This document shows positions 32,999 to 49,597 of a DNA stretch of 64,000 nt, one piece after another; position 1 is the stretch's first letter, and each line of letters starts with the position of its first letter. The position numbers were made by a program, and so were the translations under genes. The notes under the pieces are model-generated. The model searched no databases. It was not told where the DNA came from and saw nothing but the letters and a program-made list of their open reading frames with translations. The DNA is from Candidatus Omnitrophota bacterium (GTDB taxonomy: Bacteria > Omnitrophota > Gorgyraeia > Velamenicoccales > JABMQK01): contig JAQTSV010000001.1 in assembly GCA_028711115.1 (NCBI GenBank), positions 6,032 to 70,031 of the forward strand, given 5' to 3'.

Positions 32999-33889
32999 TT
33001 ACCTTAATCCTCCCAAGCCTCCGGTAGTGACAAATTGCAATAATACCGGTCCTCCCACAATTACGGCCACCACAGGCAGAATAAAGAATATCAAAGGTAT
33101 GAGCATCTTCATGGGTGCCTGCAGGGCTATCCTTTCCGCGCGTCTGAAAAACCTCTCGCGTACATCGTCTGAAAGGACGCTCAATGCCTGGGCAATAGGA
33201 ATACCCATTCTGTCGGCCTGAATGAGCGTGCGGCAAAATGCTGTGACATCAGGAAGGCTTAAGCGTTTTGCCATATCCGCAAGTGCGTCCCTGCGAGACT
33301 TTCCTACTTTTATTTCGTGTAATACCAAACTAAGCTCCTCTGTAAATGCATTAGCAAAAGATTTATCTACAATCCATCTGGCTGCGGCAATGAAATCCAG
33401 GCCTGCATCCACGCACAACGATAATAAATCCACCGTATCCGGAAGCGTCCGGATTATTTTTGACCTTCTATCCTGTACTTTAAAATTCAGCCAAATGTCC
33501 GGTGCGATAAAACCCACTATAGGCAGTATTATTAATGGCGCCACATCGCCGCTTCTTATGAACAGAAAAGTCAAAAACAAAAAGAAGAATGCCAATAATT
33601 CTTTTATGGCCAGGAAGTGCTCCGGCATCATAAATAACCTGGCTGCAAACATTTTCTCTTCCATTTTATTTCTCTTAAAAAATTTATTAACCAGCATATA
33701 GTTAACCGGCACGAAGAAATCCAGCATCGTGCCAAAGAAAGATTTTTTATTCTTGGTGCTGTATGCGTCCACCTTCAGTCTCCGTTGAATTGCCGTCTTT
33801 AATTCATAGGAGGTAAGCATTACAATCAAAACATTTGCCAGCAGTACGATTATCGCTATAAATAGAATTATCTGTGCAATTATCTCCAT
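32999..33889 (-). CDS. tadC: Tad pilus assembly inner-membrane platform protein TadC (T2SS-F family)
   Basis: 296-aa ORF. LPDTVDLLSLCVDAGLDF..LHEIKVGKSRRDALADMAKRL..FCRTLIQADRMGIPIAQAL..FILPVVAVIVGGPVLL is a typical TadC/GspF-type domain with flanking TM helices. Confidence 0.85.
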   Translation of the reverse strand: MEIIAQIILFIAIIVLLANVLIVMLTSYELKTAIQRRLKVDAYSTKNKKSFFGTMLDFFVPVNYMLVNKFFKRNKMEEKMFAARLFMMPEHFLAIKELLAFFFLFLTFLFIRSGDVAPLIILPIVGFIAPDIWLNFKVQDRRSKIIRTLPDTVDLLSLCVDAGLDFIAAARWIVDKSFANAFTEELSLVLHEIKVGKSRRDALADMAKRLSLPDVTAFCRTLIQADRMGIPIAQALSVLSDDVRERFFRRAERIALQAPMKMLIPLIFFILPVVAVIVGGPVLLQFVTTGGLGGLR

Positions 33890-33897: not shown

Positions 33898-34782
33898 CTA
33901 TAAATTCACCCTGCCGAACATCCTGATTAAAAATACGCCTACGATTTCCGAAATCACCGCGTACAGCAAAAGCCCCCTGCCCATAGGATTCGACAGCATA
34001 ATATCAAAGTAGTGCGGGTTAAAAGAATAAACCATTATCGTAAACACAATGGGCAAAAGTGACATAACCACGCCCTGAATCTTTCCCTGCATGCTCAGTG
34101 TCTTGACATTATCCGAGAGTTTAAGTTTTGCCCTGATAGTATTAATCAGGGTGCCGAACAATTGCGTAATATCGCCGCCGGTTTCTCTGGCCACCAGTAT
34201 CGCAGTGGTAAGTAAATTCAATTCTTCCGAAGGCATACGTTTGTTTAATCTGTCAAAAGATTCTTCCAAAGACATACCCATTTTATTCTCTCTTAAGATA
34301 ATGCCGAACTCCTGGCTGATGGGCGCAGGCAATTCCTCGACAAGCGCTTCAATCGCCTGCAGCAAGCTCAATCCTCCCTTAAGGCAGCTGGAAAGTATCA
34401 TCAGCCCGTCGCTAATCTGGGCATGAAATTTTTGCTTCCGGCCGACTATCATTCTCTTAAAAACAATACTAGGGATAAGAAAACCGATGGCCAGACCCAG
34501 CAATGCGCCGATGACATAGCTACCGAACACTCTCCCGAAAAATACGGCAGATACCAATGTGCAAATTGTGGGAGAAAGGGTATTAAACAGAACCAGTTTT
34601 TTGGCATCGATAAACAGCATCATCTCTTTTAAATTCATCTTCTGCTCTTCAATTTTGCGTGAGCGCCAACCAGAAAAAACCTTGAGCGCCACAGATGTAA
34701 ATTGCACGCCCTGGCTGGCAAGAACATAAATCGCACCTGCGATCAAGATGAAAACTACAAATTTTAAAATATCTGATGCCAT
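33898..34782 (-). CDS. tadB: Tad pilus assembly inner-membrane platform protein TadB (T2SS-F family)
   Basis: 294-aa ORF. LSSCLKGGLSLLQAIEALVEELPAPISQEFGIILRENKMGMSLEESFDRLNKRMPSEELNLLTTAILVARETGGDI, with TM helices at both ends. Confidence 0.85.
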   Translation of the reverse strand: MASDILKFVVFILIAGAIYVLASQGVQFTSVALKVFSGWRSRKIEEQKMNLKEMMLFIDAKKLVLFNTLSPTICTLVSAVFFGRVFGSYVIGALLGLAIGFLIPSIVFKRMIVGRKQKFHAQISDGLMILSSCLKGGLSLLQAIEALVEELPAPISQEFGIILRENKMGMSLEESFDRLNKRMPSEELNLLTTAILVARETGGDITQLFGTLINTIRAKLKLSDNVKTLSMQGKIQGVVMSLLPIVFTIMVYSFNPHYFDIMLSNPMGRGLLLYAVISEIVGVFLIRMFGRVNL

Positions 34783-34783
34783 C

Positions 34784-35017
34784 TTAGTTCTCCGTTACCG
34801 TTGTGACAGATGGTTCGTATTGTCTGCCCTGGCCGAATGTATCAGCTGTACTACGGAAGCTGCCGCATATCGCACGCCTTAAATAAAACTGCATAGCCAT
34901 GAGCGCTGCCACTATTATGGCGATAAGCACAACATACTCCAAAGTAGAGGCTGCTGTTTTTCTGCTCAAGCCAAAGGTTTTAAAATTCGTTTTAGTTCTA
35001 CAGTTTATTTTTTTCAT
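34784..35017 (-). CDS. flp: Flp-type pilin paralogue
   Basis: 77 aa. The leader is followed by AASTLEYVVLIAIIVAALMAMQFYLRR (Flp x-x-x-x-E-Y plus hydrophobic helix). There are 1-nt gaps to both neighbouring genes. Confidence 0.75.
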   Translation of the reverse strand: MKKINCRTKTNFKTFGLSRKTAASTLEYVVLIAIIVAALMAMQFYLRRAICGSFRSTADTFGQGRQYEPSVTTVTEN

Positions 35018-35018: not shown

Positions 35019-37517
35019 TTAATTCCCCGGAACTAATCTTACACTATTTGGATTTTGATCAAAAGCTGCATGCGCTGTTCTTTCTATAACGCCTGTCTTC
35101 CATAAACCCAAAACACCAACCTGTTTCTCGCTGGGGTCTGTACGTCTTACCCTTACCCAAGTAGTGCTTCCATCGTCATTATAGTTTTCCAGCTGGAAAC
35201 AAGTTTTATAAGATAAATCTCCCCAGCCACTGCTCTGCCTGAATGAACGTATAGAGGGGATTTTAAAATTTGCTGGTAGCTGGATCTGTACGCTGTGTTG
35301 TCCACGGCTATCAACCCAGGTGTAAGACACAGGATTTATCCCGCCAAATTCTTGAGAAACATTTAGATTGGCATATGCTTGATCAATATCATTATATAAA
35401 GTTTGTATATCCACCTTAAAAGCCTCTAGTCTATCTATCATATAGTGGATTTCTGCCTCCGCAACTGCAAATTCATCTTCCATGTCCGCATCTATTGAGG
35501 TTTTACAGGGCGCATTAATAATTCCTTCTGCACCATAAGTACAATCCGGAAGATTATTTCTAATGCTCTGAATCACATACAGCCAACTGTATAATCCCTC
35601 TTGGAATCCTGTATCTGGGACACCGTCTAAAATCATATCGAAGAGCGCATAATAAGGGCCTTCGCTGGCTGGCGCGGTTTGGGCTGGATCATAAAACCAG
35701 TCCATCCAAAAACCCCACGAAGAAGCAATGGCCTCGAGGTCCTGCTGCTGGATAGCGTCTACTGTCCGCGTAAATTCTTTAAAAGTATCCATAGTATAAT
35801 CTACCTCGTCATAACCAAAATCCGGCATGGGACTGCAACTTTCGTCTTCACAATTTTCGTTACTATTAACCCAGTTATTCCATTGTTCCAAAGTTGGCCC
35901 TGGCTGCCAGAAAGAAACATCTATTCCGTGATTTTCTAATGTACTGAACAATTCTACAATCGGACCTGGATTAGCAGCGCAATCCAATTCCCCGCGATTA
36001 AGAAAGGCCATGGCATCATTCTTTAAAAATGTGTTGAACACAGGCATAGCCCCATTGTTGTCCTGATCCCAAAATCTCTTAATCCCTTCAAATATGGTGC
36101 CCAAGGATTGTTTAAGCTCGAATATCCTTCTGTCCCACCAAAATTGAAAGCGAGGAACGCTTTCCTGCGTATCGCCGTCACCGTCAGAATCACAGGGGTC
36201 GCCGCCCGTTACTGGCCCACTGCCACAATCAACAACTAAATCAGAAGGTGTCATATTGGGGTCATCTACAAGCTGTGACAATGCGGTTAAAAATGTGCCT
36301 TCTCTGTATGCATCTCTGTCCCCGAGGCTGTTTATAGAATTTACAAAAGAGCTAATGGCTTTACTCAAATCATTTTGCATCTTCTGAAGATCGCGATAGG
36401 AACCATAACCCGAAGCAGCCATATTCAGGGCTTCTCCTACTGTCAACGCTCCTTTTGAACCTGTTAACAATACCTCTCCTCCTATACTTGATATGGCGTT
36501 TGATACTGAACTAAGTCCCATCAAATCTAAACCCTGCCCTGGCAGGCTAGCTACCCAGCCTATTGCTGAATCAACGGCGTGGACAGCTGCTTGTATTCCG
36601 CCCCAAATCTGAGTACCTAGACCCGGCGTGGATGCGGGTGCTGCTGGTACTGCTGCTGGTGCTGCTGCTGGTGCTGCTGGGGCTCCGCCGCCCGCTGTTC
36701 CCCCAGCTGCGCCGCCTGCTGCTGCTGTGGTTATTGTGGCGCCTCCTGTTGCTGTTACTGTTGCTGTTACTCCTGCCGATGTGGCTACTGTTGCGGTTGC
36801 TCCTGCTGGCAATGCTATTGTTGCTGTGGTACCTGCTGCTACCGTCATTGTTGATGTGGTCCCTGCTGCTGTGGTTATTGTTACTGTTACATCTCCTCCC
36901 GCCGCTGCCACTGATACTGTTGATGCTGTATCTGCTGCTGCTGTTACTGTTGCGGTTCCTCCTCCTTCTACCGTTGCCATTGCTGGTGCAGCAGGGATAG
37001 CTACTCCTGCTGCTGCGCCAATAGCTGCGCCAATACAAGCGCCCATTAAAACAGTATTCCAAAAAGCTTTACTGCCGGCTATGGTCATACCCTGAATGGC
37101 TGCGCCGGTGGCAGCACCTATGGCCCCGGCTAAAGCACCGATAGCCACCAAAGCTAAAGGGGTTCCTATTCCTAAAGTTAATATCGATACGACTACAGCT
37201 GCAATCGCGAACAGCGCTGCTAATACCACCGCCACCCAACCCTGCTGATAACACTTCTTGGTCTGGTTGCCCAGCGACTCATATAGCTGGCGTGACCGAG
37301 TACTTAGCTGAGAAGCAAGCTGAAGCACAGATGCGTCTGCCACATTAGTAATAGCCGTTGTCTTAACTGCCACTTCACCAATATTTACAGTAATCAGTAT
37401 AAGCACCAATACAATCACCATTATTAAAATAAGCAGTGTAGCAATCTGGCCGCTTACACCTCTGCCAGTTTGAGAAAATATATTTACAAGGCCGACACTG
37501 CGTCTGTGCAACATCAT
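35019..37517 (-). CDS. TadG-like large pseudopilin/pilus-associated protein with TM-rich and Ala/Thr/Gly/Val low-complexity regions
   Basis: ORF 35019..37724. The likely start is Met70 (37517), downstream of the stop of the preceding gene. GVSGQIATLLILIMVIVLVLILITVNIGEVAVKTTAITNVADASVLQLAS matches the TadE/G-like N-terminus. A large globular C-terminal part follows. Confidence 0.65.
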   Translation of the reverse strand: MMLHRRSVGLVNIFSQTGRGVSGQIATLLILIMVIVLVLILITVNIGEVAVKTTAITNVADASVLQLASQLSTRSRQLYESLGNQTKKCYQQGWVAVVLAALFAIAAVVVSILTLGIGTPLALVAIGALAGAIGAATGAAIQGMTIAGSKAFWNTVLMGACIGAAIGAAAGVAIPAAPAMATVEGGGTATVTAAADTASTVSVAAAGGDVTVTITTAAGTTSTMTVAAGTTATIALPAGATATVATSAGVTATVTATGGATITTAAAGGAAGGTAGGGAPAAPAAAPAAVPAAPASTPGLGTQIWGGIQAAVHAVDSAIGWVASLPGQGLDLMGLSSVSNAISSIGGEVLLTGSKGALTVGEALNMAASGYGSYRDLQKMQNDLSKAISSFVNSINSLGDRDAYREGTFLTALSQLVDDPNMTPSDLVVDCGSGPVTGGDPCDSDGDGDTQESVPRFQFWWDRRIFELKQSLGTIFEGIKRFWDQDNNGAMPVFNTFLKNDAMAFLNRGELDCAANPGPIVELFSTLENHGIDVSFWQPGPTLEQWNNWVNSNENCEDESCSPMPDFGYDEVDYTMDTFKEFTRTVDAIQQQDLEAIASSWGFWMDWFYDPAQTAPASEGPYYALFDMILDGVPDTGFQEGLYSWLYVIQSIRNNLPDCTYGAEGIINAPCKTSIDADMEDEFAVAEAEIHYMIDRLEAFKVDIQTLYNDIDQAYANLNVSQEFGGINPVSYTWVDSRGQHSVQIQLPANFKIPSIRSFRQSSGWGDLSYKTCFQLENYNDDGSTTWVRVRRTDPSEKQVGVLGLWKTGVIERTAHAAFDQNPNSVRLVPGN

Positions 37518-37560
37518 CTGCAAAAATCTGCGAATATTTTTTGCAATAATTCTGCCAGAC

Positions 37561-37830
37561 TTAGTGAGATTCGCCAAAGATATCAAGTTTCGGATAATTT
37601 GATTCATTGATATACACCCCCTCGTTACCTGCAGCAATACTGCCGGCTGCAACTCTTGTTGATTCGTAATCTTCCTGGCGATGTGCCAGTCTTTCTGTAA
37701 ACCATATGAACATATATATAGCACCGGATAATAATACCGTCAGGCAAATAAATGCCAGGGTTATCTCCAGAGTTGCCTGAGCCCTTTTTGATTTATGCTG
37801 CCTGTCTGTTTTTACTGACCTGTCTGCCAT
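37561..37830 (-). CDS. TadE-like pseudopilin
   Basis: 89 aa. KRAQATLEITLAFICLTVLLSGAIYMFIWF is a TadE-type N-terminal helix. Confidence 0.6.
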   Translation of the reverse strand: MADRSVKTDRQHKSKRAQATLEITLAFICLTVLLSGAIYMFIWFTERLAHRQEDYESTRVAAGSIAAGNEGVYINESNYPKLDIFGESH

Positions 37831-38948
37831 GTCTTACTTCCTTGTTCTGACCTTGTGGTTGAATATTCTTCAGTCCGCACACTTGCCGCTGGCTGCGCAA
37901 TACCAGTCGTCTGATCCAAATGATCATTATATAAAATCGCCCTGGTTGTGGTCGTATTCCAATAAATATCGTCGGTGGTTGCAATGCCTGAGGCGCCTTC
38001 TGTCTTTCTCATCTCTAAATCTGTATTTACCTGTTGAGTATATTCGGGCTGAATGCCCATAGCCTGCACAGGCCTGCCTGAACCAGGAAAAGCGAATAGT
38101 TGCTCTATATGAGGAAAACTCCAGGTATCATTCTGTTCATAAAGACCGGCGTAACCATTGTGGTATCCTCCCGGCAGAGAAAATGGGGCGCCGTTGTGAT
38201 ACAAATCATAAAGATACCAAGGGACAAGCACTTCTTTAGCGCAAACTGAACTACAAGGAGTTGTATCGCCGGGTTTCTTTCCTCTCTCGCATTCCTGTGT
38301 GCAAAAATCCTGGTCCACAATCAAACGCGCCTGTCTTATGGCGTTATTATAATCCACTATCTCTCCTTCACAATAATCTACAACTGTTATAGTTCTGTTG
38401 CTACCCTGACAACCATCACCACTACACCATCCCCTGACATTGCCATATATTAAACCATATTTATCTCTTAAATATCTGTATTCATCTCCATTTTCCGGAA
38501 TATGTATATACTCGTCTCTTAATCCTGCTGTGGCTAAGGCGCGTTCCTGAGTGACTACCTGACCGTTTACTTTTCCCTGAAATTGCATAACCAGCTTGGG
38601 CAGACCATCGTAATCAGCTGCTGTGGCGTCTGCATTAGAGTCACGGGTGACGCTGGCTGATGCCATAAACGGGCTTACCTGGCCTACGCCAAACGGACTG
38701 GAAGGATCAGGAATGTGCCTGTCTTTGACAAGCACATATGTAGCTGAACCGTATGGCTGGCCACCGTTATCATTCTTAAAAGCCAGCTCCTGCGCTTTAC
38801 GAAATGCCTCCATCTGAGCCTGTTGCTGGAAATTGTATCTTAAACCGTATGCAACCAGAACGCCCAAAAGGAGCAGAATTAATGAACCGAAAATAGACAG
38901 CTCAAGCAGCGCCTGACCATTTTTAGTTTTTATATTTTTTATCATCAT
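37812..38948 (-). CDS. Large TadE-like protein with a Cys-rich extracellular domain
   Basis: 378 aa. KNGQALLELSIFGSLILLLLGVLVAYGL is a TadE-like N-terminus. A Cys cluster follows: WCSGDGCQGS..DYCEGE..DFCTQECERGKKPGDTTPCSSVCAKE. Confidence 0.6.
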   Translation of the reverse strand: MMIKNIKTKNGQALLELSIFGSLILLLLGVLVAYGLRYNFQQQAQMEAFRKAQELAFKNDNGGQPYGSATYVLVKDRHIPDPSSPFGVGQVSPFMASASVTRDSNADATAADYDGLPKLVMQFQGKVNGQVVTQERALATAGLRDEYIHIPENGDEYRYLRDKYGLIYGNVRGWCSGDGCQGSNRTITVVDYCEGEIVDYNNAIRQARLIVDQDFCTQECERGKKPGDTTPCSSVCAKEVLVPWYLYDLYHNGAPFSLPGGYHNGYAGLYEQNDTWSFPHIEQLFAFPGSGRPVQAMGIQPEYTQQVNTDLEMRKTEGASGIATTDDIYWNTTTTRAILYNDHLDQTTGIAQPAASVRTEEYSTTRSEQGSKTWQTGQ

Positions 38949-39355
38949 TAAAAAGCCCCTACTGTTTCTGTGCCGGTTCTTGATTGTTCATCCATATTTG
39001 TGGTGACTATGGTTGTGGCATTGACTCTATTAGCTGTTCTGTCTACATCGACAAGAGAAGTGCTGGTAATATCGCTACTGGTTGTAATTGTAAAATCAGA
39101 TTCTGTCGCGCCTGGCTCATACTGGCTGCCGATACTGTCAGCTGACTCGCGTATTTTTCCCTGAATACCGCGCTTAAGATAACTCTGCATTGCAATTAAA
39201 GCCACAATGATAACCACAATCACAAAAGCATATTCAATTACAGACGACTGACCAATTATGTTTTTAAAAAGATTTTTTAAAGATTTAAAATGAGGACAAT
39301 TTTTATCGCCCTGTTTTATATTCATATTACCGATTGTTTTATTCTGTTTGTTCAT
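38948..39355 (-). CDS. flp: Flp-type pilin paralogue (long, 135 aa from Met9)
   Basis: GQSSVIEYAFVIVVIIVALIAMQSYLKRGIQGKIRESADSIGSQYEP. The ATG at 39355 lies 2 nt after the upstream stop; the track start at 39379 would overlap the upstream gene. Confidence 0.7.
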   Translation of the reverse strand: MNKQNKTIGNMNIKQGDKNCPHFKSLKNLFKNIIGQSSVIEYAFVIVVIIVALIAMQSYLKRGIQGKIRESADSIGSQYEPGATESDFTITTSSDITSTSLVDVDRTANRVNATTIVTTNMDEQSRTGTETVGAF

Positions 39356-39357
39356 AA

Positions 39358-39732
39358 TTATAACTCGTGGTCCTGCCACGAAGTACTCACTCCTGTGTTA
39401 TCAGAATCCTGATTAAATGTGGATGTCACTTTGGAACTGTCGCCCGCGCCTTCCTCTTGAATTCTCATGCTTGCCTGCGACGTAGAACGCATCGCGATAT
39501 TCTGCGACATTGCTCTCTCCGCATTTGTCTCCATATATTCCTGGTTGCCTAATTGATCGGCGCTGTATTTAATCACTGACTGAATTCCCCGTTTCATATA
39601 AATTTGCATGGCAAGTAGGGCCGCAGACACTACAGCTATTAACAGTGCGTATTCTGCAATGCTTTGGCCCATTGTCTTTTTTGAGTCCTTAGTTTTGAGT
39701 TTTAAGTTTATCTTTATCATTCCTCTTGCCAT
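39358..39732 (-). CDS. flp: Flp-type pilin paralogue (124 aa)
   Basis: TMGQSIAEYALLIAVVSAALLAMQIYMKRGIQSVIKYSADQLGNQ. Confidence 0.75.
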   Translation of the reverse strand: MARGMIKINLKLKTKDSKKTMGQSIAEYALLIAVVSAALLAMQIYMKRGIQSVIKYSADQLGNQEYMETNAERAMSQNIAMRSTSQASMRIQEEGAGDSSKVTSTFNQDSDNTGVSTSWQDHEL

Positions 39733-39786
39733 TTCTGCCCTGTTATTTATGACTTATATAATATAGGCAGAAAATTCATTGCCCTC

Positions 39787-40113
39787 CTAATTTGTAGTAT
39801 TGTACTCATCTTCAAAGTTACCCATAGTTTCTGAACCTGTGCGCTGCTGCCAGGAATCCTCATACTTTGTAGTTGTCGTCCAGGCGTCCTGTGCTTCAGT
39901 TGTGTTTGAAAACGACTCGGTCCTATAATTGTATGTGGTATGGTCTGGAGAAAACTGATCTCCGATCTGATCCGCGGAATCCCTCATCCTACCCTGTATA
40001 CCGCGTTTCAAATATGCCTGTATAGCAATAAGGGCCATAATTACCACCACCACGAGTATTGCATACTCCAAGGTGCTTTGGCCTCTCTTTTTTGTCCTTA
40101 ATAAACGCATCAT
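39787..40113 (-). CDS. flp: Flp-type pilin paralogue (108 aa)
   Basis: MMRLLRTKKRGQSTLEYAILVVVVIMALIAIQAYLKRGIQGRMRDSADQIGDQFSP. Confidence 0.8.
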   Translation of the reverse strand: MMRLLRTKKRGQSTLEYAILVVVVIMALIAIQAYLKRGIQGRMRDSADQIGDQFSPDHTTYNYRTESFSNTTEAQDAWTTTTKYEDSWQQRTGSETMGNFEDEYNTTN

Positions 40114-40152
40114 TTATTCACCCCCTAACTTAAGTAGTTAGTTTTAGTTTGA

Positions 40153-40506
40153 CTAATCATTACCCTCTGACCAGTTGCCATATGTAATTTGACCTGTCCT
40201 GGCTGTATATTCATTTGTGATATCCCGCGTAATTTGACCACCCTTTTCCATGGCCTCAGATCTATCTGACCTGGATGCTGTGGACATGTTGGACTCCATA
40301 TAATATGGCTCATACTGAGATTGGGTAAATATGCCTTCACCTGTCTCATTGCCAATTGTCATACTATAATCCATTGCATCCTTTATGCGCGCCTGCATGC
40401 CACGACGCACATAAATCTGCATGGCTATGGCTGCCGCCACGATAACGCCGATTAATATTGCGTACTCTGCTGTATTTTGAGCTCTTTTATTTAGAAATCG
40501 TATCAT
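40153..40506 (-). CDS. flp: Flp-type pilin paralogue (117 aa)
   Basis: MIRFLNKRAQNTAEYAILIGVIVAAAIAMQIYVRRGMQARIKDAMD. Confidence 0.8.
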   Translation of the reverse strand: MIRFLNKRAQNTAEYAILIGVIVAAAIAMQIYVRRGMQARIKDAMDYSMTIGNETGEGIFTQSQYEPYYMESNMSTASRSDRSEAMEKGGQITRDITNEYTARTGQITYGNWSEGND

Positions 40507-40544
40507 CTTATGTCACCCCCATTTCACAATTATATAAATTTAAT

Positions 40545-40745
40545 TTAATTAGTGAAACCAAAACCTACCTTATTGCCGAAATAATCTGCGCCTCTCTCAA
40601 TGCTTGCTCCTGCCTGGTTGTAAGTCCTATTTACTGCCGGCTTAATAATGCTAACGGCTGCAAAAATAATTGCTGCTGCAATTGCTGTAAAAACGATAAC
40701 GTATTCGACGGTGCTTTGTCCGCGTCTGCCTCTCACTTTCTCCAT
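40545..40745 (-). CDS. flp: Flp-type pilin paralogue (66 aa)
   Basis: MEKVRGRRGQSTVEYVIVFTAIAAAIIFAAVSIIKPAVNRTY. Confidence 0.8.
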   Translation of the reverse strand: MEKVRGRRGQSTVEYVIVFTAIAAAIIFAAVSIIKPAVNRTYNQAGASIERGADYFGNKVGFGFTN

Positions 40746-40804
40746 CCTCCTTCACCCCCTTCCTGTTCTTTATTTTTTATAAAGAATGAATAAATCCGAT
40801 ACGG

Positions 40805-41041
40805 CTACCAGCTATAGGCATTGGCTACAAAATCCTCTGCCACGTGATTTATCGCCACCGATGTACTTTCAAATAACCTGTTTACAGACGGCCTTATAAA
40901 CGTAGTGGCCGCAAAAATTATCACCATTACTATCACAGAAAACATCACCACATACTCTATAATCATCTGGCCTTTATCCCTAGTGATTAGAGCCATCGTA
41001 TTAAACCATATACTCAAGATTGTTTTATTTAGCGTATTCAT
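40805..41041 (-). CDS. flp: Flp-type pilin paralogue (78 aa from the ATG at 41041)
   Basis: DKGQMIIEYVVMFSVIVMVIIFAATTFIRPSVNRLF. The ATG at 41041 lies 1 nt after the stop of the upstream unlisted flp gene. The start is uncertain (an alternative is Met16 of this ORF). Confidence 0.7.
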   Translation of the reverse strand: MNTLNKTILSIWFNTMALITRDKGQMIIEYVVMFSVIVMVIIFAATTFIRPSVNRLFESTSVAINHVAEDFVANAYSW

Positions 41042-41042
41042 T

Positions 41043-41213
41043 TTAGTTTGTCTCATTAATCTCTGCATTAACTTGGCCCTCTACAGTCTTAAGGTTGGCC
41101 TGAATCGCCCTTCTCACATAGAGAGACATAGCTATAAGCGCTGCGCTTACCACCGCGACCAAAACCGCATATTCCATTATGGACTGACCTCTTTTTCTGA
41201 AAAAATTAGCCAT
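41043..41213 (-). CDS. flp: Flp-type pilin, 56 aa (below the ORF-track length cut-off, so not listed)
   Basis: Hand translation gives MANFFRKRGQSIMEYAVLVAVVSAALIAMSLYVRRAIQANLKTVEGQVNAEINETN*. The ATG at 41213 is 2 nt after the upstream stop (41216-41218), and the TAA is at 41045-41043. Confidence 0.8.
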   Translation of the reverse strand: MANFFRKRGQSIMEYAVLVAVVSAALIAMSLYVRRAIQANLKTVEGQVNAEINETN

Positions 41214-41215
41214 GG

Positions 41216-41494
41216 TCAATTGCTCCCTGGGTTAACTATTCTCTGGATTGCCGCATCGCGCATATTGCCCAAGCTTCTCCGCACACTTGGGAAAAATGCA
41301 GAAATACTAATCACTGTCAAAGCAGCCACAATAGTAAACAGAATAAAATATTCTATGATAACCTGGCCTGCGTTTTGTCTTAAAGATTTTGTTAAGGAAT
41401 GAAAAGGTGAGGATCTATGTAAGATAATATATATACTTCTTAAACACTTTTTAAAACTTATTCTTAATTCTGGAGTTATAAAGTTCATTTTCAT
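41216..41494 (-). CDS. flp: Flp-type pilin paralogue with an unusually long leader (start uncertain)
   Basis: ..LRQNAGQVIIEYFILFTIVAALTVISISAFFPSVRRSLGNM. It is tightly coupled to the next flp gene. Confidence 0.6.
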   Translation of the reverse strand: MKMNFITPELRISFKKCLRSIYIILHRSSPFHSLTKSLRQNAGQVIIEYFILFTIVAALTVISISAFFPSVRRSLGNMRDAAIQRIVNPGSN

Positions 41495-41667
41495 CTTTTT
41501 TTTGTGAGCAATAAAAAAACCGAGTTGTCTATTTCCTTATCGGATTTCGGCAGCCCGGCCATACAAACTCTACAACTACAGACTTCTGTTTTGTACCCGT
41601 GGCTTTGCTTTCCAACATATTTTGATTACTTTGGATTGCCCTTTCGTTTCCGACCCTTTGCACTACA

Positions 41668-41697
41668 AATATAACATATATATAATATATATGTCAA
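41668..41697 (-). promoter_or_regulatory. Candidate sigma70-type promoter for the flp array
   Basis: On the minus strand: TTGACA (41697-41692), an 18-nt spacer, then TATATT (41673-41668). It sits in a 320-bp AT-rich intergenic region ~170 nt upstream of the first flp ORF. Many -10-like hexamers occur here. Confidence 0.35.
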
Positions 41698-41813: not shown

Positions 41814-43358
41814 CTATCCCGAAAAGCAAAATAATTTACCCTGGCTGTCTTTTATCCCTGCTTCATTGAGCCGATGGCAAATATATTGTATGTCCGTATC
41901 TTTACATAACTTATTGTCAATAATGAGTTTATGTGATATAAAATCCCTGCTCTTTTTGATTACGGCCTTCTGCTTTAAAAAGGTTTCTTTTATTCTAAGT
42001 TCATTCCAGCTGCGGCACTCGTCGGAGAGGAACCTCTGCTGAAAATTATGAAACATAATTTTACCCAGCATTTCCAGGATTGCATCTAATGAGCTCGACG
42101 AGCTTTGCTCATTGGAAAGATCTGAATTAAAAAAATATGTGCTTTTTAATTCCTGTCCTTTTATCTTTTTTGTAAAGTCTTTATGGCGTTCTTCCGGAGC
42201 AAACCAATGGTATAACCATTTGTACGACAAATAGTTATGGATAATATCCCGGGGAATATTGGTAAGGATCCCTATCCTTGCCGCTGCCAAAGGACTATTT
42301 TTTAAGATAATTGCTGTTAGCTTAACTTCTTGTGGCACAAGATGTTGCGGTATATTTATTTCTTCAATTTGGTAGTAATATTCTAGGCCAACCTCCGGCC
42401 AAATAAACTTTTGTTTTGCAGGTTTCCTTTCAAACTCTGACATCATCTCTGACTGCCAGGGCCAGAATCCCATAAGAAAAAGAATCTTGTCCGAACCGGA
42501 AATCGGCTTATAATCTACGATCTCATTCTGCATGTTAATAAGCTCAATTTGTTTTATTCTCTTTGAAGTTTCCTGCGCCTCAAAGGCCAGGATAAAATTC
42601 AACACCTCCGACGAGAGAATGCTGGTTTCCTGTATATTGAAAATAGAAAATACGGTTTTATTATCAATAAACTCTTTTACATAACTACTTGCATTGTAAT
42701 ATGTTGTGATAAACTCTCTGTTTATCGTAGGTGTGTGCCAAAGGGCTTGTGAGCTTGCGTCTATGAAAAAACTACTGTCATCTCTGAGGTGAAATCTGAA
42801 ACCAGAAATAGGCGCGAGGCGCTGTTTAAGTTCTATAACTACTCCATTTGCAAAGAGTTGCGAATTTTGCATCACATTCAAAATCTGTCTGTATACTGCC
42901 TTGGCAGGCCTTTTACCCACCAATTGCCACACATTTGTATTGTCGTAACTATCTGCAGTAATTATATTTGTATCATATATCATCTTAAAAAAAATAAGTG
43001 CCTGAAGCACATTTTCCACATCCTCCAGGAAAGTTTTTGAAATCAGCGGCGAGATATTCAATAAAACCCTGGCTGCTGTTTTAGAAATATTCAGACGGTG
43101 ATCAACTGCCCGCAGCATAGAAAAACCACCATTTTCTATCTCTCCTTCTGTGGCTATGGGATGCTTAGATTTCCGGCCCACCGGGCTGGTTAATTCTTCT
43201 TTTATTAATATATTATTTACGGAAGACTTAGATAGGGCAATCCCGAATTTTTTGCTGGTGATTAAAGCCAGATTTCTGCAGCTAATATCAGGATCTTTCT
43301 GCTTATTGCTGATGATAAATCGGGTTACTTCTGGTTTAAGCTTATATATATTAGGCAT
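41814..43358 (-). CDS. Hypothetical 514-aa protein with a possible N-terminal HTH
   Basis: A long ORF flanked by AT-rich intergenic regions. The N-terminus PEVTRFIISNKQKDPDISCRNLALITSKKFGIALSKSSVNNILIKE looks HTH-like. I recognise no other motif. Confidence 0.6.
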   Translation of the reverse strand: MPNIYKLKPEVTRFIISNKQKDPDISCRNLALITSKKFGIALSKSSVNNILIKEELTSPVGRKSKHPIATEGEIENGGFSMLRAVDHRLNISKTAARVLLNISPLISKTFLEDVENVLQALIFFKMIYDTNIITADSYDNTNVWQLVGKRPAKAVYRQILNVMQNSQLFANGVVIELKQRLAPISGFRFHLRDDSSFFIDASSQALWHTPTINREFITTYYNASSYVKEFIDNKTVFSIFNIQETSILSSEVLNFILAFEAQETSKRIKQIELINMQNEIVDYKPISGSDKILFLMGFWPWQSEMMSEFERKPAKQKFIWPEVGLEYYYQIEEINIPQHLVPQEVKLTAIILKNSPLAAARIGILTNIPRDIIHNYLSYKWLYHWFAPEERHKDFTKKIKGQELKSTYFFNSDLSNEQSSSSSLDAILEMLGKIMFHNFQQRFLSDECRSWNELRIKETFLKQKAVIKKSRDFISHKLIIDNKLCKDTDIQYICHRLNEAGIKDSQGKLFCFSG

Positions 43359-43520: not shown

Positions 43521-43877
43521 CTATGTTTCTGCTATTTCTATTGTATCTTTTAAAGCGGTGTTTGTCCTGGCTAAAGTGCCTGCGGGTAGTTCTATAACAA
43601 GGTGCCCCCTGAACCACGAACCCTGGAGTCTAAGCGGCGGCAAAAACACAGCCATGGCTACAACTTTACCGCTCTTATCCAGAAATGCCACATCTATACT
43701 AAAGCGCATAAAAAATGTGTGGATTGAATTGCAGGGCTTGATTACCAGGCCTTCTCCCGCAGCCAAGTTGTCTCTGCCTAAAAGGCCTCTGAGGCGTTTC
43801 AAAAACGTCTCTGCCATTTCTGCCTTGTCTGCCAGGATTGTATTTTTAGTCCTGTTTATAATTCTGACATTGCCCAT
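43521..43877 (-). CDS. DUF192-family small protein
   Basis: 118 aa. GLVIKPCNSIHTFFMRFSIDVAFLDKSGKVV..VIELPAG is the typical DUF192 (COG1430) pattern. Confidence 0.65.
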   Translation of the reverse strand: MGNVRIINRTKNTILADKAEMAETFLKRLRGLLGRDNLAAGEGLVIKPCNSIHTFFMRFSIDVAFLDKSGKVVAMAVFLPPLRLQGSWFRGHLVIELPAGTLARTNTALKDTIEIAET

Positions 43878-44039: not shown

Positions 44040-44717
44040 TTATTTTCCATTCTTTAATTTCTCGGGATGGTGCCTTACGACTTCTGCCTGGACCATATAG
44101 ATTACATCCTCTGCGATATTTGTAGCATGATCACATATGCGCTCTAAAAAACGAGCTATTAACAACAACTGAACAGCTCTTGGCGCAGTAGTTCCATCTT
44201 TAACCATGTAATCTTCGATAAGCTCTTTTTGTATTTCATTGCGGAGCTGATCTGCTTCGGAATCGGATGATAAGACTTTTTTAGCTAAGACAATATCGCC
44301 TTTGACAAATGCATCTATGGACATCTTTACCATATTCTGCACAACAGCTGTTAACTTGGGTATGTCGACCAAAGGCTTTAAAAGTGGTTTGTCTACTACT
44401 TCAAGCGTACGTTGTGCTATATCTACGGCTATGTCCGCTATTCTTTCCAATTCGGCATTTATCTTCATACCGGTTGTAATAAAACGCAGGTCGCCAGCCA
44501 TAGGCTGATAGAGCGCTATTAAATCAATGCACTTTTCATCTACAACTAATTCCAATTTATCAATGTTGGAATCATTTTCTATAACGCTCCTGGCCATTTC
44601 CTTATCGCGATTCTTCAGCGCTTCCACAGATTTAAAGATGGCCTCTTCTGCTAAAGCACCCATCCTTAAGATATCTTTATTCAATTCTTTCAGTTCTTGA
44701 TCAACATGCCTTTCCAT
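44040..44717 (-). CDS. phoU: Phosphate-signalling regulator PhoU
   Basis: 225 aa with two PhoU repeats (..ELERIADIAVDIAQ.., ..FLERICDHATNIAEDVIY..), directly downstream of pstB. Confidence 0.9.
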   Translation of the reverse strand: MERHVDQELKELNKDILRMGALAEEAIFKSVEALKNRDKEMARSVIENDSNIDKLELVVDEKCIDLIALYQPMAGDLRFITTGMKINAELERIADIAVDIAQRTLEVVDKPLLKPLVDIPKLTAVVQNMVKMSIDAFVKGDIVLAKKVLSSDSEADQLRNEIQKELIEDYMVKDGTTAPRAVQLLLIARFLERICDHATNIAEDVIYMVQAEVVRHHPEKLKNGK

Positions 44718-44789
44718 ATTTAACCTTCTTTCTTTTTTTGTGTTTATTATACCCGGCCATATCGGATTGGCCGGCGTGTCATTTCTCTT

Positions 44790-45551
44790 CTATCCGAATC
44801 TTCCGGTAATGTAAGCCTCTGTTTTGGGATCTTTGGGCTTGGTGAAAATATCCTGCGTCTTGCCAAATTCTATTAGCTCACCCATTAAAAAGAATGCCGT
44901 ATAATCAGAAACCCTTGCTGCCTGTTGCATATTGTGCGTAACGATTACAATAGTGTATTCTTTTTTTAACTCCGTAATGAGTTCTTCTATTTTTGCGGTT
45001 GATATGGGGTCAAGGCTTGCGCATGGTTCATCAAACAAAATCACTTTAGACTCAACCGCAAGGCTTCTGGCAATGCATAATCTCTGCTGCTGGCCGCCGG
45101 AAAGCTTAAGTGCGCTATCACAAAGCCTGTCTTTTACTTCCAGCCACAACGCTGCTTTCTTCAACGACCACTCAACTTTTTCTTCGATAAACGATCTATC
45201 TTTAATCCCGTTTACCTTAAGGCCGTAGCTGATATTATCAAAAATGCTTTTGGGAAAAGGATTTGGTTTCTGAAAGACCATCCCCACCTGCCTTCTAATT
45301 TCAACGGCATCAACAAAAGGGTCAAAAATGTCCATGCCGTCGAGATATATCTTACCACTAAGTGCAGTATTAGGCACCAGTTCATTCATGCGGTTTAATA
45401 ACCTGATGAATGTTGACTTGCCGCATCCTGAAGGACCGATTATTGCCGTAACCTGATTCTTATAGATATCGAGATTTATATTTTTTAACGCTTGGGTCTT
45501 TCCGTAAAAGAAATCCACATTTTCTGACTTGATTTTTATTCCGCTATCCAT
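44790..45551 (-). CDS. pstB: Phosphate ABC transporter ATP-binding protein PstB
   Basis: Walker [10 protein letters not shown], signature [16 protein letters not shown], Walker B ILFDEP; PstB-typical ends. Confidence 0.93.
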
Positions 45552-46392
45552 AAATGCCTCTCTGTCTTTGTCGTATAAAAATAGCTATTCCTGAAATCGC
45601 CAGCACCATAAATAAAAGTATAAGGCTGCATCCGTAGGCGATTGCCGTCTGTTGATCGGGATGGGTGCCTTCGGTCATTAGCGCATAGATATGATACGGC
45701 AGCGCCATCACTTCGGAAAAAACTGATTTAGGATATCCGCGGGTATAAAAAGCTGCTGCCGTAAAAAGAATCGGCGCGGTCTCACCAGCAACTCTACCTA
45801 TGCTTAAGATAACACCAGTTAAAATCCCGGGCAGTGCCGTAGGCAAAACTATATTCTTTATTGTTTCCCATCTGGTTGCGCCAAGGGAAAACGACGCTTC
45901 TCTTATCGACTGGGGAACCGCCAATAATGCTTCCTGCGCGGAAGAAATTATTAAAGGAAGGGTTAAAATACCTAAGGTTAGGCTTCCTGAAAGTATTGAT
46001 ACGCCGAAGCCAAAGAATTTGACAAAAACCGCCAAACCAAAAAGTCCGAATACCACCGAAGGCACTCCTGCCAAATTATTAATACTTATTCTGATAAGAT
46101 TAACTATAAAACCTTTGGGAGAATATTCGCATAAATAAATCGCGCAGGCTATCCCTAAAGGCAAAGCAAAAAGTATCGCGCCTAAAGTCAAATAGAATGT
46201 GCCTACAATAGCTGGAGCAACCCCGCCCTGCGTCATACCTAATCTTGGCCCCTGGGTTAAAAATTCCCAAGAGATAACCTTAAAACCTCTTACGCTGATA
46301 AAATATATAATTGAGCCTAAAAAAAACAGGGTTGTAAGTATGCAAAGGAATAACGCAAAAAAACCCAAATTTTGAATAATATTTTTTTTCAT
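45544..46392 (-). CDS. pstA: Phosphate ABC transporter permease PstA
   Basis: 282-aa polytopic permease with EAA-like loop [17 protein letters not shown], in the pstSCAB order. Confidence 0.88.
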
Positions 46393-47264
46393 CCGCTTAA
46401 TCCTAATTTTATCCTGAAACGCCTGCTAATTATTTCAGCGATAATATTAAAAACAAATGTGGTCAGAAATAAAATAAGCGCAATGGCGAATAAGGCATGG
46501 TAATGCAAACCTCCCATGGGCGCTTCTCCCATTTCCGCAGCAATTGCTGCTGTCATGGGCCGCACCGGCTCTAAAAACGAATGCGGAATCACAGCTGCCC
46601 CTCCGGCAACCATCAAAACCGTCATGGTTTCACCTATGGCACGGCTCATACCTAAAATTATAGCCGTTGAGATTCCCGAGCCTGCTGCCGGTATTACCAC
46701 CTGTGTCAGAGTCTGCCACCTGTTTGCCCCTACAGCAAAGGACGCCTCGCGGAATGATTTCGGAACATAATTAAGCGCATCATCAGCAAAACTGCAGACC
46801 GTAGGTATTGCCATCACTCCTAAAACTAAACTTGCATTCAAAGCAGTCAAGCCAGTAGGAAGATGGAATAAAATCTGTAGTAACGGCGTAAGTATCACCA
46901 TTCCGAAGAAACCATACACTACAGAAGGAATGCTCGCCAATAGTTCGATTAAAGGTTTAAGTATTGCCCTTTGCTTATATCCGGCCAGCTCATGCAGATA
47001 AAGTGCGCTTCCCACGCCTAAAGGCACACAGACAAGTATTGCACCAAATGTTACCCATATAGAAGCCAATATCAAAGGTAAAATTCCAAACTCAGGAGTT
47101 GAGTAGGTAGGATACCAGGCCTTTCCTAAAATAAATTCCAATAGCTTAACTTTCTGAAAAATAGGCAGTGCCTCTTTAAAAAGAACGATTACAATACCTA
47201 TTAAAAATATCAAAGAAGTAAATGCCAAAACCGTAAAAATCCATTTATATAATTTTTCTTTCAT
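46389..47264 (-). CDS. pstC: Phosphate ABC transporter permease PstC
   Basis: 291-aa polytopic permease with SFREASFAVGANRWQTL; 4-nt overlap with pstA. Confidence 0.88.
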   Translation of the reverse strand: MKEKLYKWIFTVLAFTSLIFLIGIVIVLFKEALPIFQKVKLLEFILGKAWYPTYSTPEFGILPLILASIWVTFGAILVCVPLGVGSALYLHELAGYKQRAILKPLIELLASIPSVVYGFFGMVILTPLLQILFHLPTGLTALNASLVLGVMAIPTVCSFADDALNYVPKSFREASFAVGANRWQTLTQVVIPAAGSGISTAIILGMSRAIGETMTVLMVAGGAAVIPHSFLEPVRPMTAAIAAEMGEAPMGGLHYHALFAIALILFLTTFVFNIIAEIISRRFRIKLGLSG

Positions 47265-47311
47265 ATCATTTTTCTGTTACGCCCAGCGCTTATCGGAATT
47301 GCGTGGGTGTT

Positions 47312-47360
47312 GCGCATTCTGCGCTAAAGGAGACCGCGGCAGAGCCTTGCCCTGCCACGG
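47312..47360 (-). promoter_or_regulatory. Intercistronic stem-loops between pstS and pstC
   Basis: GCGCA-TTC-TGCGC (47312-47324) and CCGCGGCAG-N9-CTGCCACGG (47334-47360, one mismatch). No U-tract, so more likely an mRNA-stability or attenuation element than a full terminator. Confidence 0.35.
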
Positions 47361-47390
47361 TTTGAGGGTAATGGGTAAACGCTTTATTTT

Positions 47391-48203
47391 TTACCTTAAC
47401 CCTACAAATCCTTCTTCTTCAACTAATTTCTGGCCTTCCGGGCTCAAGATATAATCGATAAACTGCTTAGCCAAACCTTTCGGCACTCCATTGGTATACA
47501 TGAATAAGGGTCTGCCGATAGAGTACGTGCCGGTAAGCACAGTTTCTTTGGACGCCTTTACACCGTCAACATCAACTGCTTTAACTGAAGATGAGACATA
47601 ACCCAATCCAACGTAACCGATTGCTCCAGGTGTCCTGGAGACAGTTGAGGCTACTGCCTGATTAGAAGCCTGCAATAAGGCGTCGGGGCGCACCTTTTCT
47701 CCCTTCAATACCAATTCTCCGAATGCTTCAAAGGTTCCACTTGAACTATCGCGTGAGATAACCACAATCTTCTCATCAGAACCACCAACATCTTTCCAAT
47801 TGGAAATCTTTCCCGTAAAAATGTCCTTGATTTGCTTTTTGGTCATTGCCCTGATATTATTTGAAGGATTCACGATAACGCAAATTCCGTCCATTGCAAT
47901 TACATTTGCTTTTGCATCTACGCCATTACCAGCAGCTTTCTCATATTCCGTATCCTTCATTGCGCGAGAAGCATCAGCAATATTACAGTTTTTATCAATT
48001 AAAGAAGCAATGCCCACTCCTGAGCCGCCGCCGCGGACTGATATATCGGCTCCGGGGTTACTATTCATGAATACCTCGGCTGCCTTCTGTGCAATTGGCA
48101 ACACTGTAGTTGATCCTTCCACTACAATTTTTTCCGCATAACAGGGAATCTCCAGGCCAAGTATCACTACCGCTAGAATCAATGCTTTGCTTAAAACTTT
48201 CAT
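47391..48203 (-). CDS. pstS: Phosphate-binding protein PstS
   Basis: The ATG at 48203 is preceded by AAGGAGGATAAAGAA. It gives MKVLSKALILAVVILGLEIPCYA (signal peptide), then GSTTVLPIAQ..SVRGGGSGVG..ISRDSSSGT, which are PstS/PBP motifs. The track start at 48290 is an upstream extension. Confidence 0.9.
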   Translation of the reverse strand: MKVLSKALILAVVILGLEIPCYAEKIVVEGSTTVLPIAQKAAEVFMNSNPGADISVRGGGSGVGIASLIDKNCNIADASRAMKDTEYEKAAGNGVDAKANVIAMDGICVIVNPSNNIRAMTKKQIKDIFTGKISNWKDVGGSDEKIVVISRDSSSGTFEAFGELVLKGEKVRPDALLQASNQAVASTVSRTPGAIGYVGLGYVSSSVKAVDVDGVKASKETVLTGTYSIGRPLFMYTNGVPKGLAKQFIDYILSPEGQKLVEEEGFVGLR

Positions 48204-48271
48204 TTCTTTATCCTCCTTGTGTACAGACACAACACCGGTACAATTCCAATTAGCGCCGGGTGTCATTTTTG

Positions 48272-49597
48272 TTAGAATTTCACATTCCAATCCACCTGAA
48301 TCACCGATGCCGGCTTAGACTGTTGTGAGCCAAAATTACCTTTTAGCTGCCAACCATAATAATAATCCAATCCTAACCACGTATTTTTACCCAGACCCCA
48401 ATCAAACATCAATTCGTGCGATCTCATGCCGGTTTTTCCGCCGTAACGGTCGGAATCAGGTAAAATATCGAGAATTGCATCTCTTCCCAACATGGCATAA
48501 TTGTATCTAACCTGCCAATCTGCCCATTTCTCAATCTTCTCGGCGCCGAATTTTAGACCCACCATATAACCGGTGTTGTCCTGTTTCACCGACGACGAAA
48601 CATTATCCACAAATTCCCCAAACAGCGCCAGATATGGAAGGCTTAGACCCAATTTCTTGAATGGTTCCTTAATTGTCAACTCAACTGCAGGGATAATATT
48701 CTGATAACCATAAAGTAGTTTGCCTGAAGTACTGCTGGTGGTATTAGAATTCGTCCCAGTCGTACCATCTAAAGTCAAATCTTTAACATTGGCAGCATCA
48801 TAATAGGAGACGGCCGTTTTTAAAGAAACTGTATCTGTGAACTGGCTAGTAATACCGGCCTGCATAATGCCCATAATTGGGTCTTCGCCTTCATCGCTGT
48901 ACTCGTCAATAATGAAAATCCCCGGAGTCAGAAATAAGTCAATCTTTGAGTTGAGTTTCTTGGTAAGTTTGACTGCTGCTCCTTCTGGATTTATATCAGT
49001 ATCCCAAATCAAATCCCCCGGTTCCCAAAGCGGATTTTTGAATTTTCCTCCTATAATCGTAGCCCAAGAAACAGGAGAATACTGGACAAATGCATAGTCC
49101 AGCGTAACTGGATGTTTGGAAAAACCGTTCCCCAGGCTCTGGTTTGTAGAGCGTGCCTGGTCTTTATCTATAGTGCTGGCATCATCTTTACCGGTTGCCA
49201 AGCCAACACCAACCAGAATCTTATCGTTTACCTTTGATTCAAGGCCGAGTCTTAAACGTATACGAGCCTGGTTTCTGTTATTTGTCGTAGTTGTTCCTGA
49301 GCCGCTTGCCAGTGTTTTTGCATGATCCAATTGATAACGCAGCCTGAAATCACCTTTTAATTTGGTATTCTGTACCCAACTAGGCAAAGAAGAGTAGGTA
49401 CCTTTGGCAATTTCTTTTTTAACCTGTTCTTTTGTTTCTGTACCGATTTGCTGTGCTTCACCGGGAGTTAAAATACCTTTCTCAACTAGTTTCTGGAGCA
49501 AAATGTCTACTTCTCCTGCGCAAGATAAACGCGGCCCTGTTGCGAAACTAAAACTAATAAATCCGACTAATAAAATTGCTAATACAAGCTTCTTCAT
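48272..49597 (-). CDS. Outer-membrane porin, putative phosphate-selective (start ambiguous)
   Basis: The ATG at 49597 is preceded by AAAGGAGGAAAGAAAA. It gives MKKLVLAILLVGFISFSFA (signal peptide) and then a beta-strand-rich sequence ending ..VIQVDWNVKF (aromatic C-terminus). It is adjacent to pstS. The in-frame upstream extension to the GTG at 49804 also has a good SD (GGAGGTGGAGT). Confidence 0.7.
   Translation of the reverse strand: MKKLVLAILLVGFISFSFATGPRLSCAGEVDILLQKLVEKGILTPGEAQQIGTETKEQVKKEIAKGTYSSLPSWVQNTKLKGDFRLRYQLDHAKTLASGSGTTTTNNRNQARIRLRLGLESKVNDKILVGVGLATGKDDASTIDKDQARSTNQSLGNGFSKHPVTLDYAFVQYSPVSWATIIGGKFKNPLWEPGDLIWDTDINPEGAAVKLTKKLNSKIDLFLTPGIFIIDEYSDEGEDPIMGIMQAGITSQFTDTVSLKTAVSYYDAANVKDLTLDGTTGTNSNTTSSTSGKLLYGYQNIIPAVELTIKEPFKKLGLSLPYLALFGEFVDNVSSSVKQDNTGYMVGLKFGAEKIEKWADWQVRYNYAMLGRDAILDILPDSDRYGGKTGMRSHELMFDWGLGKNTWLGLDYYYGWQLKGNFGSQQSKPASVIQVDWNVKF

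Follow-up and report, generated by a model that had tools for sequence, protein, structure and literature searches.

Introduction

The Omnitrophota are uncultured, ultra-small bacteria thought to be predators or parasites, and a Tad locus with an adjacent giant gene provides the main genomic clues to how their cells attach. Previous work reported a complete Tad complex in Candidatus Velamenicoccus archaeovorus LiM and giant open reading frames (ORFs) across the phylum (Seymour et al. 2023, PMC10066038; Kizina 2022, via Seymour), a conserved secretion-like locus ahead of the giant genes (West-Roberts 2023, bioRxiv 10.1101/2023.11.21.568195), and, for 13 of 14 giant genes, neighbouring pilus or secretion genes (2026 preprint). 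The small genes near these loci have been described only as "many small genes" with class III signal peptide homology (West-Roberts 2023). Here we evaluated such a locus in a 64,000-nucleotide stretch of a Candidatus Omnitrophota bacterium genome (assembly GCA_028711115.1, contig JAQTSV010000001.1, positions 6,032 to 70,031; hereafter "the window"), in which eight tandem pilin-like genes (p1-p8, "the array") and a ninth (p9) lie in the same locus as a giant gene. We lean towards reading this array as the pilin set of an Omnitrophota version of the Tad (type IVc) pilus machine, composed of major and minor pilins, gated by cyclic di-GMP (c-di-GMP) and used in attachment.

Seen against the published Omnitrophota giant-gene loci, the order of genes is the same, running from a Rotamase_2 peptidyl-prolyl isomerase (PPIase) through RcpC, secretin, ATPase, small class III genes and two GspF/TadBC genes to the giant gene, and the LiM locus is directly orthologous to that of the window. 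The locus type and the existence of small genes are already known, whereas the anatomy of the pilin set is not described in the published giant-gene papers, which contain no orthogroups, two size classes, hairpin extension or riboswitch. The window also differs in that a pst/pho block separates tadZA from the array. What we add is modest, namely a conserved multi-class pilin set, a predicted hairpin class for which no Pfam model exists, and a riboswitch.

Results

Nine pilin-like genes and their shared signature

All nine ORFs lie on the minus strand, eight in tandem at 38948-41494 and the ninth at 34784-35017, just as a prior sequence-only reading of this DNA had proposed for a family of Flp-type paralogues, and their lengths of 56-135 amino acids agree with both ATG-started ORFs and the GenBank calls. 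In an alignment of the nine, each begins with a basic leader followed by G or A, four residues (five in p8), Glu-Tyr and about 20 hydrophobic residues, such that the G/A-x4-E-Y signature claimed for every copy is exact in eight of the nine but takes the form G-x5-EY in p8. A second motif that had been attributed to most copies, AMQ.Y.[KR]RG.Q...SAD..G.Q, is present in p5-p9 and partly in p2, but not in p1, p3 or p4. Scanning the 64-kb window for [GAS]-x4-5-E-[YFW] followed by 16 mostly hydrophobic residues recovered the nine ORFs plus one spurious plus-strand match inside the giant ORF, and 30 shuffles of the window gave a mean of 0.33 matches.

For comparison, a scan of GTDB species representatives yielded 80 related loci (given L numbers below), nearly all labelled Omnitrophota and the rest evidently mislabelled metagenome-assembled genomes. 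Array statistics come from the 55 arrays that lie wholly inside their contigs, and orthogroups were assigned by best BLAST match to the nine proteins of the window, not by trees.

Five of the nine genes encode short Flp-like prepilins, the first being p1 (41216-41494; 92 amino acids). Neither the GenBank nor the Logan gene callers called p1, yet it is conserved and under purifying selection, with orthologues at 27-59% identity in related loci (48-59% in L003, L004 and L011) that share an SLKKYL(K/R)S leader motif. Its 43-residue leader ends in ...QNAG/QVIIEY (a slash here and below marks the putative cleavage site). The sequence-only reading had named the 56-residue gene p2 as the one missing from its ORF list; GenBank calls p2, and it is p1 that the callers miss, so gene callers do overlook members of such arrays. 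The remaining short genes are p2 (41043-41213; mature length 47 residues), which gives the best Flp_Fap match; p3 (40805-41041), of 78 residues in GenBank or 87 from an ATG at 41068, recognised as an ORF with orthologues; p4 (40545-40745; 66 residues), an ORF with a strong GGAGG ribosome-binding site; and p9 (34784-35017; 77 residues; RKTA/ASTLEY), which lies between a TadG-like gene and tadB and is placed identically in most close relatives.

The four long pilins are p5 (40153-40506; 117 residues; cleavage site KRA/QNTAEY) and p6 (39787-40113; 108 residues), both supported by homologues and an AlphaFold2 (AF2) model, p7 (39358-39732; 124 residues), supported by its ORF and orthologues, and p8 (38948-39355; 135 residues). 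The last combines its atypical G-x5-EY site with a conserved C-terminus, TG.E.VGAF, and has syntenic orthologues in L015, L004 and LiM; in most p8 orthologues the site reads GQxxxE[M/T/L]A, which is nearer to TadE style. That four copies of 108-135 residues have extended C-termini was confirmed, and this extra C-terminal module is conserved.

Conservation, order and selection

The array is present in all 80 related loci, and closer relatives, including LiM (L010), keep the order p1-p2(-p2')-p3-p4-p5-p6-p7-p8 ... p9. Across the 55 complete arrays, pilin genes follow one another in runs of 3-11 (median 7), and their mature lengths fall into two groups, of 40-60 and 90-120 amino acids. Four types recur in nearly all of them (p2 in 53, p4 in 47, p5 in 52 and p6 in 53), whereas p3 is limited to a closer clade (14 of 55). 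Their arrangement is similarly regular, with p2-type genes coming first in 32 arrays, p6 directly following p5 in 50, and short genes preceding long ones in 52. Such conserved order and types would fit a fixed set of complementary subunits and not redundancy or antigenic variation.

Within the window, the other paralogues share 19-38% identity with p1, and the array contains neither DNA repeats nor inverted repeats. We interpret the paralogues as old syntenic orthogroups and not as recent or variable copies. The "variable fibre" of the sequence-only reading does not hold up, given that the copies are deeply diverged and lack DNA repeats, and that other species have a separate orthologue of each one, arranged in the same order. 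Two related candidates were rejected, a recombination or phase-variation cassette for want of repeats in the array, and recent tandem duplication on the low identity to p1 and the separate orthologues of each copy.

Selection was assessed from pairwise ratios of nonsynonymous to synonymous substitution (dN/dS) against the three closest loci, which ranged from 0.07 to 0.34 across the nine genes (p1 0.23; p2 0.08-0.09; p4 0.07-0.08; p6 0.07-0.15; p9 0.16), and these ratios are approximate given saturated dS. The nine genes are under purifying selection. Pseudogenes were rejected as a candidate on these ratios, and the condition under which the sequence-only reading would have been abandoned, that most copies be pseudogenes, was not borne out with dN/dS well below 1. 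The more general suspicion that the ORFs are chance frames or decaying pseudogenes, which could draw on p1 having escaped two gene callers and on scores that fall short of every curated cut-off, is effectively refuted by nine motif matches against 0.33 by chance, by orthologues in dozens of species and by the same low dN/dS.

The spacing of the array is tight, with some stop/start overlaps, which suggests that it is co-transcribed, and a promoter-like site lies inside it at 40556-40529, ahead of p5. Elsewhere, duplicated p4-p5-p6-type blocks were seen in L039, L045, L052, L061, L072 and L077, which bring the number of pilin-like genes in tandem to as many as 11; in some lineages, then, the array grows by duplication of blocks. 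Several paralogues might then be alternative major pilins, deployed by condition or host so that one machine makes different fibres; the many co-directional pilin genes, the internal promoter-like site, copy numbers from 3 to 11 between species and the duplicated blocks (e.g., L039, L045, L072, L077) all speak for this. We nonetheless consider it decidedly improbable, since the core p2, p4, p5 and p6 types co-occur in fixed order in nearly all arrays, which complementary roles fit better, since spacing and overlaps suggest co-transcription, and since no invertible or recombination repeats are present.

Relationship to Flp and class III pilins

Profile searches placed the nine proteins near, and individually below, known pilin families. 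Against Flp_Fap (PF04964; cut-off 32.2 bits), p2 scored best at 22.2 bits (E 1.3e-4), followed by p8 at 14.5 and p7 at 12.5, with no match for the other six; against Class_IIIsignal (PF04021; cut-off 23.7), p6 scored best at 16.8 bits and five of the nine matched below the cut-off. The Pfam search gave no match for p1, and NCBIfam nothing meaningful for the nine. A homologue search with p2 recovered 16 close relatives, none with a Pfam label, and tblastn of p2 against annotated plasmids returned no match.

Signal was stronger at the family level. Among 75 short pilin-like ORFs from related arrays, 28 matched Class_IIIsignal (best E 1e-8) and 26 matched Flp_Fap (best E 3.4e-6) at E ≤ 0.01, with DUF4244 (9), Flp1_like (2) and TadE (1) accounting for further matches, and some homologues carry the JGI names "Flp pilus assembly pilin Flp" or "UPF0333". 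As regards size, p2, p3, p4 and p9 (56-87 amino acids) are in keeping with Flp pilins (about 50-80), p1 at 92 exceeds the usual size because of its long leader, and p5-p8 fall outside.

Membership of the nine proteins in the Flp/class III pilin superfamily is well supported, the assignment resting on motif, gene context and family-level matches in orthologues, as each protein by itself scores below the curated cut-offs. The Flp identity proposed from sequence was thus upheld at superfamily level, by motif, Tad context and orthologue matches, but not as curated Pfam membership.

A long class with a predicted beta-hairpin

The long class departs from the Flp family in a defined way, because Flp pilins are 50-80 amino acids long and fully helical (PMC12075869). 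The AF2 model of p6, built from a family alignment, has a helix (14-53) followed by a beta-hairpin (60-75/80-96) at a predicted local distance difference test (pLDDT) of 80-86, with a whole-model mean of 73.7; that of p5 has the same topology, with a confident helix at 6-54. The class has no Pfam model, and the C-terminal half of 70 long relatives drew no profile match. Homologue searches found 526 for p6 and 195 for p5, nearly all named ones from Omnitrophota and with conserved lengths, and the p6 family profile, run exhaustively with HMMER, retrieved 4,528 clusters (50% identity) at E ≤ 1e-3, of which 1,665 at E ≤ 1e-10. A profile for this class would label thousands of "hypothetical" proteins.

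The long class bears more resemblance to minor pilins of the TadE/F style, in a very small version. A more ambitious and rather doubtful view is that the roughly 100-residue p5-p8-type proteins are an unmodelled Omnitrophota-specific class (at least 1,665 clusters at 50% identity) whose helix and hairpin build or coat the filament as a beta-sheet outer layer and do not form rare tip subunits, or else form a conduit or anchor coupling the machine to the giant protein. It is far less probable that p5-p8 are no filament subunits at all, and are instead membrane-anchored or released small proteins, e.g., of a cell coat, that merely share a class III signal peptide. Such proteins could show almost no pilin-profile signal beyond the N-terminus, no structural match and a hairpin unlike the all-helical Flp pilins, as p5-p8 do. 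Their genes, however, always lie between short Flp-like and TadE/F/G-like genes in a pilus operon, and it is the N-terminal helix that shows the strongest conservation and the highest model confidence, as it does in pilins.

A predicted c-di-GMP-I riboswitch ahead of the first pilin gene

Upstream of p1, we identified on the minus strand a putative sigma-70-like promoter (41668-41697; TTGACA-18-TATATT with a TG extension), a consensus match at 11 of 12 positions whose sequence is nearly identical in L004, followed by a predicted c-di-GMP-I riboswitch aptamer (RF01051) at 41546-41650 (Rfam 36.6 bits, E 0.0016, gathering threshold 35). The score alone is weak evidence, but recurrence directly upstream of the first pilin gene supports a riboswitch: RF01051 matches occupy this position in L004, L040, L021, L044, L033 and L073 at 39-59 bits, and L015 has one at 29 bits, below threshold. 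A covariance model built from the Rfam-found elements (R1) added L075, L080, L027, L024 and, weakly, L003, and nhmmer with a two-sequence aptamer alignment found no match. The P1 stem shows a compensatory change, from CCAA/UUGG in the window to CCAG/CUGG in L004.

RNA folding also suggested an expression platform at 41505-41565 (minus strand), a putative intrinsic terminator that is followed by U7 and takes the 3' strand of aptamer stem P2 as its own 5' arm. When the window and 11 related loci were folded, a strong hairpin with a U-run overlapping the aptamer appeared in 8 of the related loci, and the stem in the window was weaker with the same layout. With a score above the gathering threshold, an orthologous position, covariation and an overlapping terminator, the element has the features expected of a riboswitch. 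It would act as an ON switch, in which ligand binding should prevent termination because the P2 3' strand is shared with the terminator hairpin.

Further c-di-GMP-I riboswitches lie away from the array start, in L021 (3476-3566, minus strand; 73.8 bits), L073 (16988-17078, plus strand; 63.1 bits; a GGC variant) and L029 (19381-19464, plus strand; 36.1 bits with model R1). Control by c-di-GMP riboswitches seems common around the related loci.

The surrounding Tad-like locus

From 1 to 59543, all coding in the window is on the minus strand. The gene order runs from a SurA-like PPIase through RcpC, secretin, a TadZ-TadA fusion and a two-component/pst/phoU block to a DUF192 protein, a 514-residue protein and the eight pilin genes, and then through proteins of 378, 89 and 862-901 residues to p9, TadB, TadC and the giant gene leaving the window. 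RcpC, secretin, TadZ, TadA, TadB and TadC are all in the window with scores above Pfam cut-offs, and the array sits in a Tad-like locus in which these genes cluster.

By Pfam domain match, the assembly genes are RcpC/CpaB (57626-58489), an RcpA/CpaC-type secretin (55969-57624), a 721-residue fusion of a ParA/MinD-like TadZ with the T2SSE ATPase TadA (53760-55925; 740 residues in LiM), and the TadB-like (33898-34782; E 5.6e-18) and TadC-like (32999-33889; E 7.5e-16) platform proteins with T2SSF domains. A TonB_C domain is fused to the C-terminus of the secretin (E 2e-14), which is unusual in a pilus secretin. Between tadZA and the array lies a phosphate block (44040-53560, minus strand) comprising two OmpR-type regulators, a PAS/HAMP histidine kinase, a porin, pstSCAB and phoU, and this block has no counterpart in the orthologous LiM locus.

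Directly upstream of the array is the conserved 514-residue protein (41814-43358), with a weak N-terminal helix-turn-helix match and a LiM counterpart at 23% identity (E 1e-37), which could be a regulator of the array; the DUF192 protein beyond it (43521-43877) occupies the same place in LiM. Downstream are three larger proteins, none of which had a Pfam match at E ≤ 0.01, TadE (PF07811) and Tad (PF13400) included. The first (37812-38948; 378 residues, 448 in LiM) has a pilin-like N-terminus (G/QALLELSI...) and is TadE/F-like by position and motif only, and the 89-residue second (37561-37830) is likewise pilin-like by motif (A/QATLEITL...), with no significant Pfam or NCBIfam match. The third (35019-37607; 862 residues in GenBank, 862-901 overall) combines an N-terminal hydrophobic helix with an Ala/Thr/Gly-rich low-complexity region, and we label it TadG-like from its position and N-terminal pattern. 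Within its gene, a low-complexity Ala/Thr/Gly/Val-rich stretch (36570-37100, minus strand) lifts the local GC content to 0.48 and gives rise to long spurious ORFs in other frames. At the other end of the locus, a tRNA (55.3 bits; 59797-59871, minus strand) lies upstream of the PPIase gene, and the only plus-strand genes of the window (60063-63561) encode a FIST-domain protein, a GAF histidine kinase and a double-receiver response regulator.

The giant gene (1-32946, minus strand) starts about 50 nt past tadC, remains in one stop-free frame for at least 10,998 codons and runs off the low end of the window; the GenBank record gives 12,939 amino acids. It is of the type reported for Omnitrophota, in which the giant protein is described with many transmembrane helices and SecA-like domains (PMC10066038; bioRxiv 10.1101/2023.11.21.568195).

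The constant presence of a giant gene at the end of the locus raises the question of whether the small pilins make up a short pseudopilus, like that of type II secretion, which pushes or anchors the giant protein, perhaps with other cargo, through the secretin. Type II systems typically have one major and several minor pseudopilins, a pattern that many distinct pilin types followed by larger ones would fit, and the unusual TonB_C domain on the secretin points the same way, as does the reading of West-Roberts et al. (bioRxiv 10.1101/2023.11.21.568195), who took the locus for a secretion system before giant genes. We regard a pseudopilus as unlikely, however, given a Tad signature (RcpC/CpaB, TadZ, two TadB/C-type platform proteins and Flp-size pilins) where GspC/L/M would be expected. 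The transmembrane helices and SecA-like domains of the giant protein suggest another export route, and a protein of 12,939 residues would be an implausible folded type II substrate.

Discussion

How a Tad-type pilin set might work

If the array is the pilin set of a Tad-type pilus, each of the nine products would start out as a prepilin bearing a class III signal peptide. Cleavage would probably fall just behind the G or A located four residues ahead of the conserved Glu and be carried out by a peptidase encoded elsewhere. By analogy with Bdellovibrio, in which PilD processes Flp1 (bioRxiv 10.64898/2026.07.08.737194), this may be the type IVa enzyme PilD. Assembly would proceed via the TadZ-TadA, TadB/TadC, RcpC and secretin of the same locus. 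Most of the fibre would consist of a single short Flp-type pilin. The p2 type is the likeliest candidate, in view of its canonical mature size, best Flp score, strongest conservation and usual place at the head of the array. The remaining short pilins and the four long ones may serve as non-redundant minor, adapter or priming subunits, working with the three larger TadE/F/G-like proteins encoded just downstream. A heteropolymeric fibre, as the sequence-only reading had suggested, is most plausibly read from these data as one major and several specialised minor pilins. Transcription would be gated by the c-di-GMP-I riboswitch, with high c-di-GMP blocking the overlapping terminator and turning the array on, and the resulting pilus might act jointly with the giant surface protein in binding host or prey cells.

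Several results weigh against a riboswitch-gated Tad pilin set. None of the nine proteins reached a curated profile cut-off in Pfam or NCBIfam, and among the 70 long relatives only 9 matched Class_IIIsignal and 3 Flp_Fap at E ≤ 0.01. The p5 hairpin (72-86/92-107) was modelled at low confidence (pLDDT 53-61), the p6 family profile found only noise among solved structures (avidin at E 0.003, augmin), and Foldseek, run on the p6 model against the PDB, returned nothing at E ≤ 0.001. No prepilin peptidase (A24: TadV/CpaA/PilD) was found in the scanned ORFs of the window or of the LiM locus. In the window the aptamer only just passes the gathering threshold (36.6 against 35 bits); an aptamer precedes the array in about 13 of 81 loci, window included, and is absent from most; and the LiM leader has no riboswitch even at a permissive threshold, so that the element appears lineage-restricted. 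The split into major and minor pilins, finally, is a guess.

For Omnitrophota biology, the "many small genes" would become a fixed, phylum-wide set of distinct pilin types, half of them in a helix-plus-hairpin class and under a riboswitch in several lineages. The annotation is thereby turned into testable predictions about the major pilin, the tip occupant and the signal for piliation.

Comparison with known pilus systems

Canonical Flp pilins (PF04964; Aggregatibacter Flp1, Caulobacter PilA) share with the window the G/xxxxEY motif and hydrophobic helix, the small size of p1-p4 and p9, and genes accompanied by TadA/B/C/Z and RcpA/C. They differ in having one or two pilin genes where eight or nine are found here, in curated cut-offs that our proteins fall below and in a tadV that we did not find in the locus, and four copies here are about twice the usual length with a predicted C-terminal beta-hairpin.

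The c-di-GMP aptamer in the first-pilin leader resembles Cdi-2-4 upstream of C. difficile pilA1 (PMC6366702), which likewise follows terminator-based ON logic and controls type IV pili. The aptamer here is class I and not class II, it precedes a Tad-type array in a diderm candidate phylum, and its ON logic is read from sequence.

The Tad system of Bdellovibrio bacteriovorus (bioRxiv 10.64898/2026.07.08.737194) has a TadZ-TadA fusion, flp1-4, no TadV in its tad loci and c-di-GMP-related regulators nearby, and Omnitrophota TadB/C group phylogenetically with Bdellovibrionales (PMC10066038). Its genes are dispersed, however, and a long hairpin class, riboswitch or giant gene is not reported. In the Kil Tad pilus of Myxococcus xanthus (Herrou et al. 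2025, PMC12075869), the pilin genes belong to several separate clusters and encode three small Flp proteins, unlike the single tandem array with a mid-size class seen here. By description it is nonetheless alike in its predatory lifestyle, its major Flp with Flp "adapter" minor pilins, and its TadE/F/G-like tip complexes that include a large TadG-like protein.

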